DNA of 60,779 bases from an uncultured Methanosarcinales archaeon (lineage in GTDB: Archaea; Nanobdellota; Nanobdellia; Woesearchaeales; GW2011-AR9), in NCBI GenBank assembly GCA_964598745.1, contig CAZRCV010000004.1:1-60779 (forward strand), given 5' to 3'. Shown here one piece after another: positions 2,302 through 49,829 of this stretch. The position numbers and the translations under genes were made by a program. The notes below the pieces were generated by a model. The model made no database searches and was not told where the DNA came from. It saw only the letters and a list, made by a program, of their open reading frames with translations. The stretch's first letter is position 1; every line of letters starts with the position of its first letter.

Positions 2302-2723
2302 TTTTCTCTCCAGCCGATGGTGGTGCAGATTTCTTTTACAGTGATATAATTTAAAGTGGGCAATTTTTTTACAGATGCTAAGGGCAGCGTGGCCAATTCT
2401 TTTTCGGCGAATTCCGTGGGAATGCCACGGTAGCAAAGAACACGCCTGAATGCTTCTTTGCCTCTAGCTAATTTCCAAGGAAGCATACCCCGGATGGATC
2501 TTCGTACATACAGTTCAGGCAGGCGTGAATGTTTGGCGCTCTTTAAGGGATATCCTTTTCTGTCACGTCTAGCTTTGGCTAAGGCGAAAGTGTTATATTT
2601 TTTGCCGCTGACGATTACTTTTTCACAATTAACAATGCGCACTTCTTCTTTAAGAAGAGCTGATTTAGCTGCGGCGGTGGCTAATCTTCCTAAAATTAAA
2701 CCATCTCCGTTGTAAATAATCAT
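2298..2723 (-). CDS. rpl13: 50S ribosomal protein L13 (uL13)
   Basis: 141 aa with operon context and typical archaeal uL13 sequence (GRLATAAAK...RGMLP). Confidence 0.9.
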   Translation of the reverse strand: MIIYNGDGLILGRLATAAAKSALLKEEVRIVNCEKVIVSGKKYNTFALAKARRDRKGYPLKSAKHSRLPELYVRRSIRGMLPWKLARGKEAFRRVLCYRGIPTEFAEKELATLPLASVKKLPTLNYITVKEICTTIGWREK

Positions 2724-5923: not shown

Positions 5924-7042
5924 TCATCTAAATATCTTCTTTAGAAATTCTGTTAGCGGTTTTTCTTCTTTTAGTTGTTTAACCAAGTCTATCTGTTTGC
6001 GGCTTAATTTTTTGGGGACTTCAATGCGCACTTTGATCATTTGATCACCGCGATCTGGCGAGTTAAAGGCAGGCAACCCTTTTTCTTTCATCCTTAAGAT
6101 GGTTTCTGAAGCTGTTCCGGGTGGTATCTTTAAAATAGCGCGCCCATTAATTGTGGGAACTTCTACTTCATCTCCTAACACCGCTTGCGTGAAAGATATA
6201 GGGATAGTGATGTTGACGTCGCTCTCTTTTCTGGTAAATACTGAATGCGGCTGGACGGTTACTTCCACATACAAATCTCCGTTAGGCCCGCCATTTTCTC
6301 CCGCTTCTCCTTCTCCGCCAAGGCGCAAGCGCATACCATTTTCTATTCCAGGGGGTATCTTTACAGACAAAGTCTTTTTTTTTCTTACAGCGCCTTCCCC
6401 GCCACAGCCGGAACAAGAATTTTGCGGCAATTCTCCTCGGGCATGACAGTATGGGCAAGGCCCAGTCTGCTGAAACACACCAAATACAGTTCGTTCCGTT
6501 CTTTTAATGTATCCAGATCCGCTGCAATGGTGGCATCTTTCAAAATCAGTAGCGCCGCGGCCATGGCAGCTGTCGCAATTTTCCAGTTTATTTAGATTAA
6601 TTTGTTTGGCAGTTCCCATGGCTACTTCTTCTAAGGTAATCTTGATTCCATACAATAAATCCGAGCCTGGGCTAGCTCTGGTTCCACGCGATCCAGCGCT
6701 ATTGCCAAACAGCTGATCGAAAATATCATCAAAATTGCCGAAGGCACCGGAACGAAATTGCGACATGATATCTGAAAAATCAAAGCCTTGTTGTGATCCA
6801 GGGCTTCCTTGAAAAGAAGAACTGCCAAATTGATCATACTGCTGCCGTTTCTTATCATCGCCCAACACCGATGCAGCTTCATTGATTTCCTTAAAAGTTT
6901 CTTCATACTCCTTTTTTTTATCTTCTGGCGCCCGATCTGGATGATATTTTAAGGCTAGCTTTTTATAGGCTTTTTTGATCTCTTCCTTAGTAGCGCTTTT
7001 TCCTACTCCCAAAGTGTTATAATAATCTTTTTCTTTACTCAT
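5924..7042 (-). CDS. dnaJ: Chaperone DnaJ (Hsp40)
   Basis: J domain with HPD (KYHPDR), a G/F-rich linker and four CxxCxGxG repeats. Start placed at MSKEKDYYNTLGV by arithmetic on the track coordinates. Confidence 0.9.
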   Translation of the reverse strand: MSKEKDYYNTLGVGKSATKEEIKKAYKKLALKYHPDRAPEDKKKEYEETFKEINEAASVLGDDKKRQQYDQFGSSSFQGSPGSQQGFDFSDIMSQFRSGAFGNFDDIFDQLFGNSAGSRGTRASPGSDLLYGIKITLEEVAMGTAKQINLNKLENCDSCHGRGATDFERCHHCSGSGYIKRTERTVFGVFQQTGPCPYCHARGELPQNSCSGCGGEGAVRKKKTLSVKIPPGIENGMRLRLGGEGEAGENGGPNGDLYVEVTVQPHSVFTRKESDVNITIPISFTQAVLGDEVEVPTINGRAILKIPPGTASETILRMKEKGLPAFNSPDRGDQMIKVRIEVPKKLSRKQIDLVKQLKEEKPLTEFLKKIFR

Positions 7043-22174: not shown

Positions 22175-22419
22175 GTTTGGAACAAAAAATTAAAGATAAT
22201 CGCAAACTAACTAATCATAAACCAACTTACCAGCTGCAACCACTGGATTTCTTACCGATACCAGGTTTTGGTTTGCTTCGTTTTGGCCTTAGAAACAGAA
22301 AACATGATTTTCCAATAACAGCTAGTGTAGAATATTTTACTAACATGGCTGTATTACTGGTTTACAACAGCATCTTAACCGTTGCGCCATTATACGTTAT
22401 GAGAGAATACTTTATTTAA
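22171..22419 (+). CDS. Small hypothetical membrane protein
   Basis: 82 aa with an ATGA overlap to the methyltransferase gene and a hydrophobic C-terminal segment. It overlaps the gatB 3' end by 8 nt. Confidence 0.35.
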   Translation: MSLEQKIKDNRKLTNHKPTYQLQPLDFLPIPGFGLLRFGLRNRKHDFPITASVEYFTNMAVLLVYNSILTVAPLYVMREYFI

Positions 22420-23824
22420 TCAGCTGTTTCATGATATCACTAACTAGCTGCGGCGAAGCCTTGCCTCGGCTAAGTTTCATCACTTGCCCAATTAAGAAGT
22501 TTAAAGATTTTTCACTGCCAGATTTATAATCTGCAACTGCAGCCTGGTTTTCATCAATTACCTTAATACAAAAACGCTGCAATTCCGAATTATCGCTTAT
22601 TTGCTGCAAATGATGCTGTTCAACATATTGTTTTGGCGAAAATGGCTTAATCATCAGTTCTTCTATAATCTTCTGGGCAGTGTCATCAGAAATACTGTTA
22701 GCAGCAACTAATTGCAATAGTTCTATCAGCTGCTCTGGTGAGAACTTGATGTCAGCAGCAGTTTTCTTATGAAAGTTAAGAACCCGTAATAACTCTTTGC
22801 GCATCCATTTGGCAGCTAATGGCGGATCAATTTTTTGAGCTACTGTTTCAAATAACTGAGCTAAATCTAAATCCATGGACATAACCTCGGCATCAGCCGG
22901 ATCCAACTTAAAGTTCTTGGTATAGCGATGGGATTTTTGGTATGCCAGTTCTGGCAGTTGTGATTTGAGTTGCTGTAACCAATCACGACCTAACTCTACT
23001 ATCGGCAAATCTGGTTCAATGATATAACCATAATCAGCTTCTGTTTCCTTGAGGCGCAGAGGGTAAGTAAAATTAGTTTGATTATCCCATCCCCTGGTTT
23101 CCTGAACCAATTTTTTGCCTTCAGCGGCTAGCTGTTTCTGGCGATTAATTTCACTGCCCAACGCCTTTTCTAACTCTTTAAATCCAGTAATGTTTTTTAT
23201 TTCCACTCGTGTGTAATTAGTTTCCTTTATGGAAACATTAGCATCAGCCTTAATAATACCATGATTTAAATCAAAAATTTTGAGGTAAGCAATAATACTA
23301 ATTAACTGGTTTAAGAAATCCCTGGCTTCTTCCGGTGAAGTTAATTCCGGTTTGGTTACAATTTCAATGAGTGGATTTCCCGAGCGGTTGTAGTCGATTA
23401 AGCAATAGGATGATTGGCGCATGGCTAAAGGATAGCTGATAGCTGCCGGATCTTCTTCCATATGCACGCGAATCAGGCTAACTTCACGGCCGGATTTAAG
23501 GTGAACTGATCCTTCCAAGCCTAGCGGCTCTTCAAATTGGGTAATTTGAAAATTTTTGGACATATCAGGGTAAAAGTAACTTTTTCTGGAAAAAATTACT
23601 TTGCTGGCTAACTTGGAATTAACGGCTAAACAGAATTTGCTGGCATACTCTAATGCTTTCTGGTTAATAACCGGCCGAGCTCCAGGATGCCCCAGGCAAA
23701 CTGGACAACAGCGGCTGTTTGCTTCTTCACTGCCTTGAGTGGGACAACTGCAGAACAATTTCGTGGCGGTATTTAATTGCACATGAACTTCCAATCCGAT
23801 TACCACTTCTGAAGTAAAGTTCAT
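22412..23824 (-). CDS. gatB: Asp/Glu-tRNA amidotransferase subunit B
   Basis: 470 aa, EVVIGLEVHVQLNTATKLFC... and a C-terminal GatB/YqeY tail. Confidence 0.9.
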   Translation of the reverse strand: MNFTSEVVIGLEVHVQLNTATKLFCSCPTQGSEEANSRCCPVCLGHPGARPVINQKALEYASKFCLAVNSKLASKVIFSRKSYFYPDMSKNFQITQFEEPLGLEGSVHLKSGREVSLIRVHMEEDPAAISYPLAMRQSSYCLIDYNRSGNPLIEIVTKPELTSPEEARDFLNQLISIIAYLKIFDLNHGIIKADANVSIKETNYTRVEIKNITGFKELEKALGSEINRQKQLAAEGKKLVQETRGWDNQTNFTYPLRLKETEADYGYIIEPDLPIVELGRDWLQQLKSQLPELAYQKSHRYTKNFKLDPADAEVMSMDLDLAQLFETVAQKIDPPLAAKWMRKELLRVLNFHKKTAADIKFSPEQLIELLQLVAANSISDDTAQKIIEELMIKPFSPKQYVEQHHLQQISDNSELQRFCIKVIDENQAAVADYKSGSEKSLNFLIGQVMKLSRGKASPQLVSDIMKQLIK

Positions 23825-25170
23825 GTTAACTCCTCTACTAATTGTAAAAATCGCAGCAAGGCTCCTTCATGCAGGTGATCAGCACAAGCCATTAAACCCA
23901 CCGGTAACCCTTCTACTGAACCAATAGGGATACTAGCATGCGGCACACCAGCCAGGTTTGGGCCAACAGTGAGGATGTCCATCAAATAATTTTCTAATGG
24001 AGTCATCTTTTTTACTTCAGAAAATTTTGGCGCAATTACCGGCATGGTGGGAGAAATCAGTAAATCATAAGTTTCAAATAATTTTTTATATTCCTCAATA
24101 ATTTTGGTTCTAACTTTAGTAGCTTTAAGATAATAAGCTTCACGATATCCAGCCATCCGGGCAAAGGTTCCTAGGATAATGCGGCGTTTGCTTTCCCGGT
24201 CAAAATGCTGGCTCCTGATTTCAGTAAAATATTTTCCGAAAGTTTTATTTTTGGGATTGCTTTCCTGGCCATAACGCAGGCCGCAAAATCGCGCTAAATT
24301 ACTAGAGGCTTCCGAGGTGGAAATAATATAATAAGTCGGGATGCCGTAAGTAAAAGTAGTCGGCATGGAGACAGATTTTAGTTCATGCCCTTGCTGCTTT
24401 AATTTCTCAATAACATTGATGATTAAGTTTTTAATGGCTGGATCAATGCCTTTTCCCAAACTTTCCTTAATGATGCCAATTTTTAAAATACCAGATTTTA
24501 CTTTAAAGTTAATTGGCTGCCGCAAGGAGGTAGCATCTTGTTGATCATGGCCGGAAATAATCTCCAGCACGGGTTTAATCTGTGAAACAGTTTTAGCCAT
24601 TAAGCCAATTTTGTCTAAAGAATCCGCATAAGAAATTAATCCATAGCGGCTTACGCTGCCATAAGTGGGACAAAAGCCAACCACTCCGCAAAAAGCAGCA
24701 GGGCTTTCAATGCTGCCACCTGTGGTTTCAGTAATAGCTACATGGTTAAATGAAGCTAGCTTGGTGATACCGGCGCCGCCGCCAGAAGAACCACCAGTTA
24801 CGCGGGTTACATCAATAGGATTTTTTGGCACAGGATAATCCAAACCAACATTGATATTAAAACTGCCAAAGCCAAAGGCATCCTGCGCAGTTTTACCGAT
24901 AACTATGGCTCCGGCTTCCTTCAGCCTGCGAACTACCGTAGCATCAAATAATGGCTTGTAGCCTTTAAGAATTCTTGATCCAGCAGTGCTTTCTACTCCC
25001 TTGACACACAGGCAATCTTTAACACTGACAAATAATCCTTTCAATGGCCCTTGTGCTTTTCCAGCCTGCTGCAACGCTTCCTGTTCACAAATTACATTAA
25101 AATAAGAGTATTTTTCGTTGATTTGTCGGCATTCTTCCAAGATGTTCTTAGTTTCATGAATCAGGGACAT
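23821..25170 (-). CDS. gatA: Asp/Glu-tRNA amidotransferase subunit A
   Basis: 449 aa with the amidase signature (GGSSGGGAG). 4-nt overlap with gatB. Confidence 0.9.
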   Translation of the reverse strand: MSLIHETKNILEECRQINEKYSYFNVICEQEALQQAGKAQGPLKGLFVSVKDCLCVKGVESTAGSRILKGYKPLFDATVVRRLKEAGAIVIGKTAQDAFGFGSFNINVGLDYPVPKNPIDVTRVTGGSSGGGAGITKLASFNHVAITETTGGSIESPAAFCGVVGFCPTYGSVSRYGLISYADSLDKIGLMAKTVSQIKPVLEIISGHDQQDATSLRQPINFKVKSGILKIGIIKESLGKGIDPAIKNLIINVIEKLKQQGHELKSVSMPTTFTYGIPTYYIISTSEASSNLARFCGLRYGQESNPKNKTFGKYFTEIRSQHFDRESKRRIILGTFARMAGYREAYYLKATKVRTKIIEEYKKLFETYDLLISPTMPVIAPKFSEVKKMTPLENYLMDILTVGPNLAGVPHASIPIGSVEGLPVGLMACADHLHEGALLRFLQLVEELT

Positions 25171-25185
25171 GTTATATTATGCAGT

Positions 25186-25473
25186 TTATCCAACAGTTTT
25201 TGGCCCGATAAAAAAGCCATCGCGCTTATTTTTAGTAAAGATTAAAACTTCCTCTTGGCTGAGACTATTGCAGGCAAGATCAGGCCTCAAGTGGTTTTTG
25301 GTTTCAATTGGCCGAAAGGAGCTGGCAGTATTTTCTACATTGATAGAATCCAAAATCGAAAAGGCCTTAAGTATTTCTTGTAAATCAGCAGTAAATATTT
25401 CTATCTCTGCTTCGGTCAAACTTAATTGAGCCATGGCTGCTATCTTTTTAGTTAATTCTGAATTAATTTCCAT
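25186..25473 (-). CDS. gatC: Asp/Glu-tRNA amidotransferase subunit C
   Basis: 95 aa, KIAAMAQLSLTEAEIEIFTADLQEIL pattern. It lies upstream of gatA. Confidence 0.85.
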   Translation of the reverse strand: MEINSELTKKIAAMAQLSLTEAEIEIFTADLQEILKAFSILDSINVENTASSFRPIETKNHLRPDLACNSLSQEEVLIFTKNKRDGFFIGPKTVG

Positions 25474-25639
25474 CGCTACAAGAGCTTGTAACGTTTTATT
25501 TAAAGGTTTTGTGATATAATAAAGGAGGCCTTAGAAAAATTAATTTTCCTTGATTCTCAGATGGTGCTTATAGCAAAAGTTCTACTGGTTCCTAATCTTT
25601 TCAGAAGTAGCATAGGTTAGAAATAATGTTAAGAAAAAG

Positions 25640-25758
25640 CGCCCCCAACCAGACTTCAACTGGTGACCTTTACCGGTTATTGCTAACTTGCGGTATCAGC
25701 CTATAAGGTAACAGCTTCGTGGTAATCTCGCACGCTCTACCTGCTAAGCTATGGGGGC
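25640..25758 (-). tRNA. tRNA-Asn(GUU) with three introns (13, 14 and 19 nt)
   Basis: Hand fold. Acceptor GCCCCCA/TGGGGGC with G73, D arm GCTT/GAGC, T arm ACCAG-TTGAAGT-CTGGT. Removing 25728-25716, 25708-25695 and 25688-25670 yields anticodon arm TGCGG-CUGUUAA-CCGCA and variable loop AGGTC, a 73-nt cloverleaf. Anticodon at 25712-25710. No encoded CCA. Confidence 0.7.
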
Positions 25759-25780
25759 ACTGCTAGTCTTTTACTCCGAC

Positions 25781-25792
25781 TTATTTATATAT
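25781..25792 (-). promoter_or_regulatory. TATA box for tRNA-Asn
   Basis: Minus-strand TATATAAATAA ends about 23 nt upstream of the tRNA 5' end. Confidence 0.4.
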
Positions 25793-25807
25793 TTTTTCAT
25801 ACAAACC

Positions 25808-25815
25808 TTTATAAA
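25808..25815 (+). promoter_or_regulatory. TATA box for aspS
   Basis: TTTATAAA lies 27 nt upstream of the ATG at 25842. It is divergent from the tRNA-Asn promoter. Confidence 0.4.
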
Positions 25816-25841
25816 ACTTTAATTAAATAACTTTATCTGTC

Positions 25842-27611
25842 ATGTTAAGAACACACACATGTGGCGAATTGACGTTAAAGAATGAAAACCAGGTGGTAAC
25901 ACTGTGCGGTTGGAATCATTCTCGCCGAGATCATGGAGGAATAATTTTTATCGACCTGAGAGACCGTTATGGCCTAACACAGTTAGTTTTCGATCCTGAC
26001 CATAATTTGGAAACTCATGTCCGCGCGGAAAAACTGCGCAGGGAAGATTGCCTTAAAGTAACTGGCAAGGTAAGATACCGCGGCCAAGGATTGGAAAACC
26101 AGCATTTGCCTACTGGAGAAATTGAGATCATCGTAGATGAATTGGATATCCTAAACAGCGCTGAAACTCCGCCGTTAGAAGTTGATGATCGCAAGGAAGC
26201 TTCCGAGGAAATGCGGCTAAAATACCGTTATTTAGATTTGCGCCGGCCAATTATGCAAAAACATTTACTAGTTCGCCATCAAGTTTTGCAAGCCTGCCGG
26301 GAATTGCTCGATAAGGAAGGATTTACAGAAATAGAAACGCCGATGCTAGTTCGTTCTACTCCGGAAGGGGCGCGTGATTATTTAGTGCCATCGCCATTTC
26401 ATCCCGGGCAAGTTTATTCGCTTCCGCAGTCGCCGCAAATTTACAAGCAGCTGCTGATGGTGGCGGGAATGGACAAGTACTACCAAATTGCTCGCTGCAT
26501 GAGAGCCGAAGATTCGCGCTCAGACCGGCAGCCAGAATTTACCCAATTGGATATTGAACTGAGTTTCGTGGATGAAGAGGACATTTATGCTATAGGTGAA
26601 AAACTATTTTATCACATCATGAAGAAAGTAAAAGGCATTGAGATAAAAACACCTTTTCGAAGAATGTCCTATGCTGAATCTATGGTTAAGTATGGTTGTG
26701 ATAAGCCAGACCTGCGTTTTGGCTTGGAACATCTAGATGTTTCTGAAATTGCCCAAAGCAGCGATTTTTCTGTGTTCAAGTCTGCAGTAGATAAGGGAGG
26801 AATAGTAAAATGTATCAATGCTAAAGGAGCCGGTTTGGCCTTTTCGAGAAAAGAAATTGATGCTCTGATTGCTTATGCTCAAAATTTAGGCGCGGCTGGC
26901 TTAGCTTGGATGAAAATGACCCCGCAAGGATTAGAATCATCCATTTGCAAATTCTTTAAGCCAGAACTGCAAAACATTTTAACTAAAAAAATGCAAGCGC
27001 AAGCCGGAGATTTATTATTATTCTGCGCTGGCGAAGAAAAATCAGTGCATAATGTAATGTGGAAAGTGCGCTTGAAGTTAGGTGATGATCTAAAACTAAT
27101 AAATCAGGATGAGTTTAACTTTTGTTGGATCAATCAATTTCCTATGTTTGAATGGAATACTGATGAAGGAAAGTGGGAAGCTATGCATCATATCTTTACC
27201 ATGCCTCGTGATGAAGATATGAAATATTTAGAAGAAAATCCAGGTAATGTGCGTGGCAAGTTGTACGATTTAGTGCTTAACGGAATTGAACTATGCTCTG
27301 GTTCAATTAGAATCAACCGGCCGGAAATTCAAGAGCGAGTAATGAAGGTTATTGGTATGAGCCTGGAAGAAGCGCAAGAAAAATTTGGGTTTTTATTGAA
27401 TGCTTTCAAATACGGAGCTCCGCCTCACGGGGGGTTTGCGCCAGGATTAGACCGGTTTGTGATGTTGATTGAAAAATTGGATAACATTAGGGATGTAATT
27501 GCTTTCCCTAAAAACAAGAACAAGGAAAGCCCCATGGATGGTTGTCCCTCCGCCTGGAATGCTAAAGACTTGAAAGAAAATTACCTAAAGTTAGAATTGC
27601 CTAAAAAGTAA
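25842..27611 (+). CDS. aspS: Aspartyl-tRNA synthetase, bacterial type (possibly non-discriminating)
   Basis: 589 aa with an N-terminal OB fold, class II motifs (FRAEDSRSDRQPEFTQLD; GGFAPGLDR) and the large bacterial insertion domain between motifs 2 and 3. Confidence 0.9.
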   Translation: MLRTHTCGELTLKNENQVVTLCGWNHSRRDHGGIIFIDLRDRYGLTQLVFDPDHNLETHVRAEKLRREDCLKVTGKVRYRGQGLENQHLPTGEIEIIVDELDILNSAETPPLEVDDRKEASEEMRLKYRYLDLRRPIMQKHLLVRHQVLQACRELLDKEGFTEIETPMLVRSTPEGARDYLVPSPFHPGQVYSLPQSPQIYKQLLMVAGMDKYYQIARCMRAEDSRSDRQPEFTQLDIELSFVDEEDIYAIGEKLFYHIMKKVKGIEIKTPFRRMSYAESMVKYGCDKPDLRFGLEHLDVSEIAQSSDFSVFKSAVDKGGIVKCINAKGAGLAFSRKEIDALIAYAQNLGAAGLAWMKMTPQGLESSICKFFKPELQNILTKKMQAQAGDLLLFCAGEEKSVHNVMWKVRLKLGDDLKLINQDEFNFCWINQFPMFEWNTDEGKWEAMHHIFTMPRDEDMKYLEENPGNVRGKLYDLVLNGIELCSGSIRINRPEIQERVMKVIGMSLEEAQEKFGFLLNAFKYGAPPHGGFAPGLDRFVMLIEKLDNIRDVIAFPKNKNKESPMDGCPSAWNAKDLKENYLKLELPKK

Positions 27612-40673: not shown

Positions 40674-40834
40674 TGTGGGCGGCAGGGTTCGAACCTGCGT
40701 AGGGACTAACCCACTGGGTATCTTCCAGTCACAGCAGTAATGCTCAGCATACCCGCTGCCAGTTTGGCCTAAGCTTAGCCTAATTATTCTCCTGAACAAT
40801 TAACCAGCCCGTTTGACCACTCCGGCACGCCCAC
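40674..40834 (-). tRNA. tRNA-Leu(UAG), class II, with two introns (29 nt at 30/31; 48 nt at 37/38)
   Basis: Hand fold. Acceptor GTGGGCG/CGCCCAC with A73, D arm CCG-GAGTGGTCAAA-CGG, long variable arm TGGGTTAGTCCCTAC, T arm GCAGG-TTCGAAC-CCTGC. Removing 40803-40775 and 40767-40720 gives anticodon arm CTGGG-CUUAGGA-CCCAG, 84 nt mature. Anticodon at 40771-40769. Confidence 0.75.
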
Positions 40835-48739: not shown

Positions 48740-49312
48740 ATGGATAACAAATCGAAGATTATTGGTTATTTAGGAAAGCACCTTAGAGAAAGTTATACTA
48801 TGCATGAGCTAAGTAAATTGTTAAACATTCCTTATGCTTCTTTTTACAGAACAATTCAAGGTATGAACGACCTTTTAACAATTAAAACTGTAGGAAAATC
48901 TAAAATAATAACATTAAACTCTAAAAATCCAGTAATTAAATCACATTTGGTAATTGCTTCTGATGAAGAAAAGAAGGAATTTTTAAGGAAGCAACCAATA
49001 ATCAAAAAATTAAAGGAAGAATTGGATACTAAAAGTATTGTTTTTGTTTTTGGCAGTTACGCGAAGGGGAAAGAAACTGAAAAAAGTGATATAGATATTT
49101 TAATTATTAACAAAGGCGGTAAGAAAGATTTGTCTTTCTCAAAGTATGAATTTTTATTCAAGAAAAAAATTAATCCAATATTTATTAGCATTAAAGAATT
49201 CAAGAAAATGTTAAAAGATAAAGAAGAAAATGTTGGAAAGCAAGCCCTAAAAAATCATATTATACTTATTAATGAAGAACAATTTTGGGAGTGTGTTTTA
49301 GATGCCTTTTGA
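48740..49312 (+). CDS. wHTH plus minimal nucleotidyltransferase (MNT-type) protein
   Basis: N-terminal HTH-like segment, then the NTase motif VFVFGSYAKGKETEKSDIDILII. Confidence 0.7.
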   Translation: MDNKSKIIGYLGKHLRESYTMHELSKLLNIPYASFYRTIQGMNDLLTIKTVGKSKIITLNSKNPVIKSHLVIASDEEKKEFLRKQPIIKKLKEELDTKSIVFVFGSYAKGKETEKSDIDILIINKGGKKDLSFSKYEFLFKKKINPIFISIKEFKKMLKDKEENVGKQALKNHIILINEEQFWECVLDAF

Positions 49313-49829
49313 TAAAAAAGTATATGAACAATTGTTCAAGGAATGCCTAACAGATAGAAGGATAAAAAAATCTGAAGAATCCTTTAAGATCAAATTGTTT
49401 TTACAAAAAGGAGAAAATAGTTTACTTATAGCAAAAGAGATGAAAGAAAAGAAACCAAGTAGGGATGAGCCTGCTAAGATTTATTGGAATTATTGGGCAA
49501 TTACGATTTCTTATTATTCGATGTCGTATGCTGCGAAAGCGGCTATTCTTTCAAAAGGTTATGAAGTTTCTGATCATGATGCAGCTCAAATTTCCTTAGG
49601 TCATTTGTTAATTCCAGATGAATTAGAAAAAGAAGATTTGGAAATTCTCAATCAAGCTCATAAAATCCTTGAGGATGAATATGTGCATTATTTTGAAGAT
49701 GCAAAAAGGGAAAGTCACATTGCAAGATATTCAGCGATTAAGACTTATACCGAAAGAAGATTAGAAGAAATTTTTGAAAACGCTAGGAAATTTGTTGCAA
49801 AGATAACGTTGATGTTACAAGATAGATAA
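49302..49829 (+). CDS. HEPN-domain protein
   Basis: 11-nt overlap with the NTase gene. HEPN helices YWNYWAITISYYSMSYAAKAAILSKGYEVSDHDAAQ and RESHIARY. Confidence 0.6.
   Translation: MPFDKKVYEQLFKECLTDRRIKKSEESFKIKLFLQKGENSLLIAKEMKEKKPSRDEPAKIYWNYWAITISYYSMSYAAKAAILSKGYEVSDHDAAQISLGHLLIPDELEKEDLEILNQAHKILEDEYVHYFEDAKRESHIARYSAIKTYTERRLEEIFENARKFVAKITLMLQDR

Follow-up and report, generated by a model that had tools for sequence, protein, structure and literature searches.

In archaea, tRNA genes carry up to three bulge-helix-bulge (BHB) introns, mostly in Thermoproteales (PMC8450103; PMC4090602), and the non-canonical insertion sites 30/31, 45/46 and 59/60 are on record (PMC4090602). Here, we describe a tRNA-Asn(GUU) gene interrupted by three short introns at tRNA positions 30/31, 37/38 and 43/44. 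It occupies positions 25640..25758, on the minus strand, of a 60,779-nt stretch of DNA (contig CAZRCV010000004.1, assembly GCA_964598745.1; this whole stretch is called the window below) from a Woesearchaeota archaeon. We consider it about 85% probable that this is a real tRNA-Asn(GUU) gene whose introns are spliced by proteins; transcription, cleavage by the splicing endonuclease EndA and exon ligation are predicted from sequence. The closest described systems are found in Pyrobaculum, Thermofilum and Caldivirga (Sugahara et al. 2007/2008, via PMC8450103 and PMC4090602). As in these Thermoproteales, the introns of the window gene are short and have BHB or relaxed HBh' motifs, an intron-borne complement would hold exon bases, some motifs would form only after the removal of another intron, and one site is the recorded 30/31. 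However, the host is a low-G+C DPANN archaeon and not a hyperthermophilic crenarchaeon, and the enzyme expected from the literature is an alpha4-type EndA with an L3 loop, not an (alpha-beta)2 enzyme with a crenarchaeal loop. Furthermore, 43/44 is not among the recorded sites found in the accessible parts of these sources, and relatives of the window gene reach four or five introns against the recorded three.

Disrupted tRNA genes are also known in the same superphylum, for instance in ARMAN-2/Micrarchaeota, which have an epsilon2 EndA (PMC3239211), and from a survey that included the Woesearchaeota genome RBG_13_36_6 (PMC5829648). The accessible part of this survey attributes to DPANN lineages an alpha4-type EndA with an extra 'L3' loop, tied to more tRNA gene disruption, and charts a 'multiple introns' class for archaeal genomes including DPANN members. 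These papers give genome-level proportions. Outside archaea, nuclear tRNA genes of the red alga Cyanidioschyzon merolae can contain as many as three BHB introns, which interrupt the D arm, position 37/38 and the T loop, and the outer ones are removed before the 37/38 intron (PMC3728597). This order, which is experimental in C. merolae, is also the one that we propose for the window gene, but host and enzyme are eukaryotic there and splicing was demonstrated by reverse transcription PCR, whereas it is predicted here. The split tRNA genes of Nanoarchaeum equitans, a member of a related lineage (Nanoarchaeota/Nanobdellota broadly), also mature in a BHB-dependent manner and are also split at 30/31 (PMC4090602). 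Unlike these trans-spliced genes, the window gene has no half-genes: its pieces are contiguous on one transcript as exons separated by cis introns. The multi-intron BHB tRNA gene is a kind already known. The lineage and the positions of the window gene are not described in the literature that we found, which held no account of this tRNA-Asn family, of its positions or of genes with more than three introns. The rarity that the first-pass annotation ascribed to three introns in one tRNA gene agrees with the published 'up to three', mostly in Thermoproteales (PMC8450103).

The minus-strand sequence that this annotation had given for the gene matches the window base for base, and the segments that it proposed to remove measure 13, 14 and 19 nt. 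The complete gene is 119 nt unspliced and 73 nt spliced, and the CCA end is not encoded. Exon 1 (25729..25758) provides tRNA positions 1-30, i.e. the 5' strand of the acceptor stem, the D arm, G26 and anticodon-stem positions 27-30. Exon 2 (25709..25715) covers positions 31-37 (G31 followed by CUGUUA, with the anticodon GUU at 34-36) and exon 3 (25689..25694) positions 38-43 (ACCGCA). Exon 4 (25640..25669) contains positions 44-73: the variable loop AGGUC, the T arm ACCAG-UUGAAGU-CUGGU, the 3' strand of the acceptor stem and G73. All four exons are on the minus strand. As had been claimed, the spliced 73-mer is a cloverleaf: ARAGORN folds it as tRNA-Asn(GTT), with acceptor, D, anticodon and T stems of 7, 4, 5 and 5 bp and all pairs formed (21/21). 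It has a 7-nt anticodon loop, CUGUUAA, with U33 and a purine at position 37, a 5-nt variable loop and G73. The conserved tertiary bases U8, A14, G18, G19, G53, U54, U55, A58 and C61 are present, C56 being replaced by G. The G+C content of the spliced tRNA is 60% against 38% for the window. Moreover, pair 7-66 is A-U in the window gene and G-C in two close relatives (L001 and L002); this compensatory double change indicates that the gene has probably remained under selection.

Archaeal tRNA splicing follows an established rule: a 4-bp central helix is flanked by a 3-nt bulge on the 3' side of each strand, and cleavage occurs after the second bulge nucleotide (marked by a bar below). Intron 1 (AGAUUACCACGAA, 13 nt, 25716..25728, minus strand), located at 30/31, is delimited both by this motif and by a unique alignment gap. 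As proposed earlier, its helix CGUG (C25-G28)/CACG, complete with 4/4 pairs, and its bulges CG|A and AA|G are in the correct BHB register; the outer helix is 2 bp long (A23-U33, G24-C32) and the inner helix 1 bp. Intron 3 (AGUUAGCAAUAACCGGUAA, 19 nt, 25670..25688, minus strand), located at 43/44, has the 4/4 central helix ACCG (A38-G41)/CGGU, bulges CA|A and AA|A and the inner helix GUUA/UAAC closed by a GCAA tetraloop. It had been called a textbook BHB, which is right for the helix, the bulges and the tetraloop but not for a full hBHBh' motif: its outer helix is a single G·U pair, which makes it an HBh' motif. For intron 2 (CCUUAUAGGCUGAU, 14 nt, 25695..25708, minus strand), which lies at the canonical site, 37/38, only a relaxed motif had been announced, and this is what we observed: the central helix CUGU (C32-U35)/GCUG has 3/4 pairs, with a U33·U mismatch common to the relatives, the bulges are UA|C and AU|A and the inner helix has 2 bp. 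Its outer helix is the anticodon stem itself, which can form only once introns 1 and 3 are gone.

None of the three introns reaches the strict hBHBh' form, in which the outer (h) and inner (h') helices have at least 2 bp each (intron 1, h = 2 and h' = 1; intron 3, h = 1 and h' = 4; intron 2, h' = 2). They are relaxed forms, HBh' or short hBHBh', that require an EndA of broad specificity. The unconstrained minimum free energy fold of the precursor (-43.7 kcal/mol, z = -3.5) contains the motif of intron 3 and the central helix of intron 1. The introns do not have the features of bacterial-type, self-splicing group I tRNA introns, which exceed about 200 nt, possess a P1-P9 catalytic core and interrupt the anticodon loop: those of the window gene measure 13, 14 and 19 nt and no Rfam group I family was matched.

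The junctions were placed independently by comparison with relatives from public metagenome contigs or metagenome-assembled genomes (MAGs), which are designated by L numbers (L001 is JAGVYX010000014.1 and L203 is Ga0637471_0000047). A scan of public metagenome contigs for the anticodon arm in its three exon pieces, with spacings of 0-30 nt allowed, gave 124 matches. The 24-mer TAGAGCGTGCG|GCTGTTA|ACCGCA (bars mark the exon junctions) is contiguous and uninterrupted in 114 of these 124 and is therefore a common tRNA-Asn anticodon arm. Global alignment of the 119-mer with the two closest intronless genes, L155 and L109, has only a three-gap solution, with gaps at precursor positions 31-43, 51-64 and 71-89; these are the three insertions expected for introns at 30/31, 37/38 and 43/44. 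The spliced 73-mer is identical to these genes at 65/73 (L155) and 68/73 (L109) positions, and positions 8-30 of exon 1 are the same in both. Repeated A and G bases let the third gap slide into three other equal registers (70-88, 72-90 and 73-91), so that the sequence alone would allow junction 42/43, 43/44, 44/45 or 45/46. It was set at 43/44 because only this register fits a BHB motif.

The relatives carry zero, one, two, three, four or five introns with identical exon junctions. For instance, L109 and L155 have none, the 37/38 intron is the only one in L137, L186, L092 and L202, it is joined by a 15/16 intron in L142, and L165 has introns at 15/16, 30/31 and 37/38. The three-intron exon structure of the window gene is the one dictated by these comparative data. 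BHB scoring covered all 28 introns tabulated in 11 genes, and in every non-canonical one among them the central helix is complete (4/4) and exactly in register for cleavage. Homologues of intron 1 measure 13, 14, 19, 17 and 21 nt in the window, L001, L002, L203 and L165, respectively, and all end with CACG-AA, while their inner helices change yet still pair (G/C, GU/AC, GUC/GAC). The U33·U mismatch of intron 2 and its 3' end ...UGAU| are also found in L001, L002, L203 and L202, and the pair beside this conserved mismatch varies from U-G to U-A. In intron 3, the inner helix GUUA/UAAC is closed by GCAA in the window and by GUGA in L001, and a GAUAA loop also occurs; the 22-nt intron 3 of L203 has a 5-bp inner helix, GUUAU/GUAAC, and a UA|A bulge. 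Judged on 3 to 5 sequences per intron, the intron helices stay paired while their sequence changes.

All the non-canonical introns of the window gene, L001, L002, L203, L165 and L142 share an organisation of their 3' end, which consists of a 4-nt complement of the exon bases located 3-6 nt upstream of the 5' splice site, followed by AA; exceptions are UA in intron 3 of L203 and AU in the 59/60 introns. In many cases, this 4-nt complement duplicates the exon strand that is the partner at this place in the mature tRNA, e.g. GAGC for the D stem. Canonical introns end mostly with AU or AA. Such shared ends may reflect either an enzyme preference or the mode of intron origin; a terminal duplicate of the sequence with which the exon normally pairs, with AA after it, hints that the introns arose in a common way.

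Several observations weigh against a functional three-intron gene. Intron 2 is weak (3/4 central pairs and a 2-bp inner helix) and the inner helix of intron 1 is a single pair. Furthermore, a BHB scan of the 119-mer gives 39 other candidates with a 4/4 central helix by chance. BHB geometry alone is thus unspecific and the case therefore rests on the motifs and the comparative evidence combined; what carries it is that the junctions obtained by comparison coincide with the BHB register, that of intron 1 being unique and that of intron 3 one of four registers. In addition, neither EndA nor RtcB was found with Pfam among the approximately 70 open reading frames (ORFs) of the 60.8-kb window, the exact locus is present in one assembly only, and the T loop UUGAAGU has a G at position 56 (window 25657), a position that is C in all of the 35 aligned intronless relatives (alignment A1) and in all intron-containing relatives. 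C56, at a position otherwise invariant, normally pairs with G19. Since G19 is unchanged, the G19-C56 tertiary pair would be lost.

This G56 may come from sequence variation, from an error or from incipient decay, and the tRNA copy may be impaired. The alternative that survives best is accordingly a decaying or non-functional copy that has the layout described above, is crippled by the C56-to-G change and leaves the supply of tRNA-Asn to another gene. The change at a position invariant in the 35 sequences of A1 and in all 10 intron-containing relatives, the resulting loss of the tertiary pair and the single assembly speak for it. However, all 21 cloverleaf pairs and all three BHB motifs are intact, the two-base difference from L001 and L002 at pair 7-66 is compensatory, and the gene has retained a promoter-like element, a T-run and its place beside gatCAB and aspS. 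Moreover, when a metagenome consensus differs at one base only, a variant or an error may be the cause. We therefore hold a pseudogene to be unlikely.

A different exon structure is far less probable still. A covariance-model result in its favour, which the first-pass annotation had named among the grounds for refutation, was not obtained, and the sole alternative came from ARAGORN -i, which reports on the unspliced sequence a tRNA-Ile(gat) with intron (31,29), i.e. a tRNA-Ile(GAU) with one 29-nt intron in which GUUAGCAAUAAC would be a long extra arm. The GUUA-GCAA-UAAC hairpin of intron 3 could indeed mimic a variable arm. Nevertheless, we rejected the tRNA-Ile reading for its 4-bp anticodon stem, for a long extra arm that is foreign to tRNA-Ile and does not suit a class I tRNA, and for its conflict with the relatives. 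A two-intron solution fares no better: the alignment to intronless relatives yields the three-gap solution only, relatives devoid of introns 1 and 3 read GUGCGGCUGUUA and ACCGCAAGGUC continuously, and removal of the three introns gives a product that matches an uninterrupted gene at 68/73 positions. Finally, a chance tRNA resemblance in A+T-rich intergenic DNA, which would account for the silence of default ARAGORN and of Rfam searches with gathering thresholds or whole-window E-values, is refuted by the local Rfam score (38 bits, E = 1.2e-6), by syntenic homologues in several independent assemblies, by the alignment to intronless genes and by a G+C content of 60% in a 38% G+C window.

Such genes escape standard tools. 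ARAGORN in default mode found no tRNA gene in the whole 60.8-kb window, and Rfam searches of the whole window at gathering or E-value thresholds gave no tRNA match because of speed filters. When the search was restricted to the 401 nt around the locus, the unspliced 119 nt matched RF00005 with 38.0 bits (E = 1.2e-6; gathering score 29), in an alignment that covers model positions 1-71 and in which 61 nt occupy the place of the 15-nt anticodon arm. A custom covariance model (R1), built from the 35 intronless tRNA-Asn genes of A1, aligned only the 3' part of the gene with filters off (14.8 bits); it did not bridge the three insertions and is silent on intron placement. The window holds at least two tRNA genes and default searches show none. 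As tools miss disrupted tRNA genes, genomes of this group will appear to lack tRNAs, and the 'missing' isoacceptors of DPANN genomes may partly reflect heavy intron disruption.

The closest relatives, L001, L002 and L203, were located through synteny with the aspartyl-tRNA synthetase (AspRS) gene and all have the three introns of the window gene, together with others. L002 (AspRS 82% identical to that of the window) has a gene of 145 nt (2418-2562, minus strand) with four introns, the extra site being 15/16. L001 (AspRS 85%; 178-nt gene at 2453-2630, minus strand) and L203 (AspRS 75%; gene from 2111, minus strand) have five introns, with extra sites at 15/16 and 59/60; their sites are thus 15/16, 30/31, 37/38, 43/44 and 59/60. 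The tRNA-Asn gene of L001 is identical in four further independent assemblies (L204-L207). At the other extreme, the 86-nt gene of L202 (AspRS 79%) has a single intron, the 13-nt canonical one. In the 15/16 intron, the central helix GCUU/GAGC is complete (4/4) and mimics the D stem, and the inner helices covary (CGUG/CACG, CGCG/CGCG, CGUGG/CCACG, CAUGU/ACAUG). The 59/60 intron of L203 is a strict hBHBh' motif, with the T stem as outer helix, UUCA/UGAA as central helix and CUAUA-GAAA-UAUAG as inner helix, and L001 keeps this frame with UUCA/UGAG. The spliced products of all tabulated relatives fold as tRNA-Asn.

With five introns, these genes surpass the highest number published for a tRNA gene, which is three. 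In our literature searches, no tRNA gene with four or five introns was found; only the C. merolae paper came up, where the words refer to intron counts per region. The window gene is probably a partly de-intronised representative of a tRNA-Asn lineage of Woesearchaeota with up to five BHB introns, in which precise losses or gains would have led to genes with five, four, three or one intron. If so, this clade would be a natural system for the study of archaeal tRNA intron gain and loss, and of an alpha4-type endonuclease facing five sites. The relatives, whose intron number runs from 0 to 5 with fixed sites, form an unusually clean series for BHB insertion and precise loss, and the gene family is of higher interest than the window gene alone. 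With the window gene, the range of multi-intron tRNA genes, so far that of hyperthermophilic Thermoproteales, comes to include a low-G+C DPANN lineage for which the literature suggests a different endonuclease architecture.

A maturation pathway can be proposed for the window gene. A TATA-box-like A/T-rich element (TATATAAATAA, 25781..25791, minus strand), located 23-33 nt upstream of the mature 5' end, is a putative archaeal promoter, and a similar (A)TATATAAA element lies at an equal distance upstream in L001, L002, L202, L137 and L155. A T-rich tract (CTTTTTCTT, 25631..25639, minus strand) that follows G73 directly is a putative archaeal transcription terminator; a T-run is also found 3' of the gene in L001, L002, L203 and L202. 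The tRNA-Asn gene would thus be transcribed from its own TATA-box promoter, with an end at the T-run after G73. In the 119-nt precursor, the anticodon stem would be blocked, the intron-borne CACG pairing with C25-G28 and the intron-borne CGGU with A38-G41, and these two pairings would create two independent BHB motifs. EndA would cut between nucleotides 2 and 3 of each 3-nt bulge, releasing introns 1 and 3, which could leave in either order because their motifs do not overlap. An RtcB-type ligase would join the exons. The anticodon stem could then form and provide the outer helix of the weaker BHB at 37/38, from which intron 2 would be removed last: C32 and U33 are engaged in the outer helix of intron 1, and that of intron 2 is the anticodon stem. 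Processing of the 5' and 3' ends and CCA addition would complete the 73-nt tRNA.

The gene neighbourhood suggests how this tRNA might be charged. Downstream of the tRNA gene and on the same minus strand are gatC (25186..25473, 167 nt away; Pfam PF02686 GatC, 1e-9), gatA (23821-25170; Amidase, 6e-105) and gatB (22412-23824; GatB_N, 5e-91, and GatB_Yqey, 3e-43). On the other side, a divergent aspS gene (25842..27611, plus strand) starts 84 nt from the 5' end of the tRNA gene and encodes a bacterial-type AspRS with a GAD insertion domain (Pfam tRNA-synt_2, 2e-118; GAD, 2e-21; OB anticodon-binding domain, 9e-17). The whole order, tRNA-Asn, gatC, gatA, gatB and divergent aspS (22412-27611 in the window), also occurs in L001/L204-L207 and in L203, and the GatC proteins at the matching position in L001/L204 and L203 are 64-67% identical. 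No tRNA-Asn gene was found beside aspS in the more distant genomes L003 and L208-L211, whose AspRS are about 60% identical; the synteny is therefore confined to the closer clade. Most likely, the neighbouring AspRS charges the tRNA with Asp and the neighbouring GatCAB amidates it to Asn-tRNA-Asn, a pathway that fits the gene neighbourhood and is deduced from gene content. The cluster suggests an indirect Asn-tRNA pathway, and the bacterial-type AspRS an old transfer from bacteria. The place of the gene, between this AspRS and gatCAB, ties a heavily processed tRNA to indirect Asn-tRNA synthesis. One of the distant genomes, L208, encodes both this bacterial-type AspRS and a 435-aa archaeal-type class IIb synthetase.

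The host is a tiny Woesearchaeota archaeon (DPANN, class Nanoarchaeia) of groundwater type. Archaeal markers in the window include RpoD with an S13-S4-S11 ribosomal cluster, aIF2-gamma, a TFS-type zinc ribbon, Gins51, prefoldin and NMD3, and an archaea-specific ThrRS editing domain is also encoded. The closest genomes are Candidatus Woesearchaeota/Nanoarchaeia MAGs, with AspRS identities of 85% and 82%; the best AspRS homologues with a named source also belong mostly to Woesearchaeota/Nanoarchaeia and are named aspartate--tRNA ligase. Groundwater metagenomes are given as the source of the independent assemblies of the relatives.

Elsewhere, the window carries a class II tRNA-Leu(UAG) gene (40674..40834, minus strand; 161 nt unspliced, an 84-nt cloverleaf once spliced, with A73 and a T-run after the gene) that both ARAGORN and Rfam missed. 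Its introns are of the same style as those of the tRNA-Asn gene. The 30/31 intron (29 nt, 40803..40775) has the central helix GGCU/GGCU and a 3' bulge AA|G, ends with ...GGCUAA| and has an inner helix that begins with UAAUU/AAUUA and extends to 9 bp by scan. The 37/38 intron (48 nt, 40767..40720) ends with ...GAAGAU|A. Moreover, L203 contains a 177-nt tRNA-like gene (6451-6627, plus strand) with intact acceptor, D and T arms and an anticodon loop enlarged by an insert of about 102-104 nt. ARAGORN calls it tRNA-Ser(UGA), a call at odds with the class I body. It could also be read as CCU (Arg) or CCA (Trp), and none of the readings yields a clean BHB motif. The insert carries C/D-box-like motifs (CUGAUGA ... 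CUGA ... GAGAUGA ... CUGA).

Finally, adjoining nucleotidyltransferase (NTP_transf_2/Polbeta) and HEPN ORFs, a typical toxin-antitoxin-like pair, are located at 48740-49829 of the window, and a similar nucleotidyltransferase gene lies between tRNA-Asn and aspS in L204-L207.

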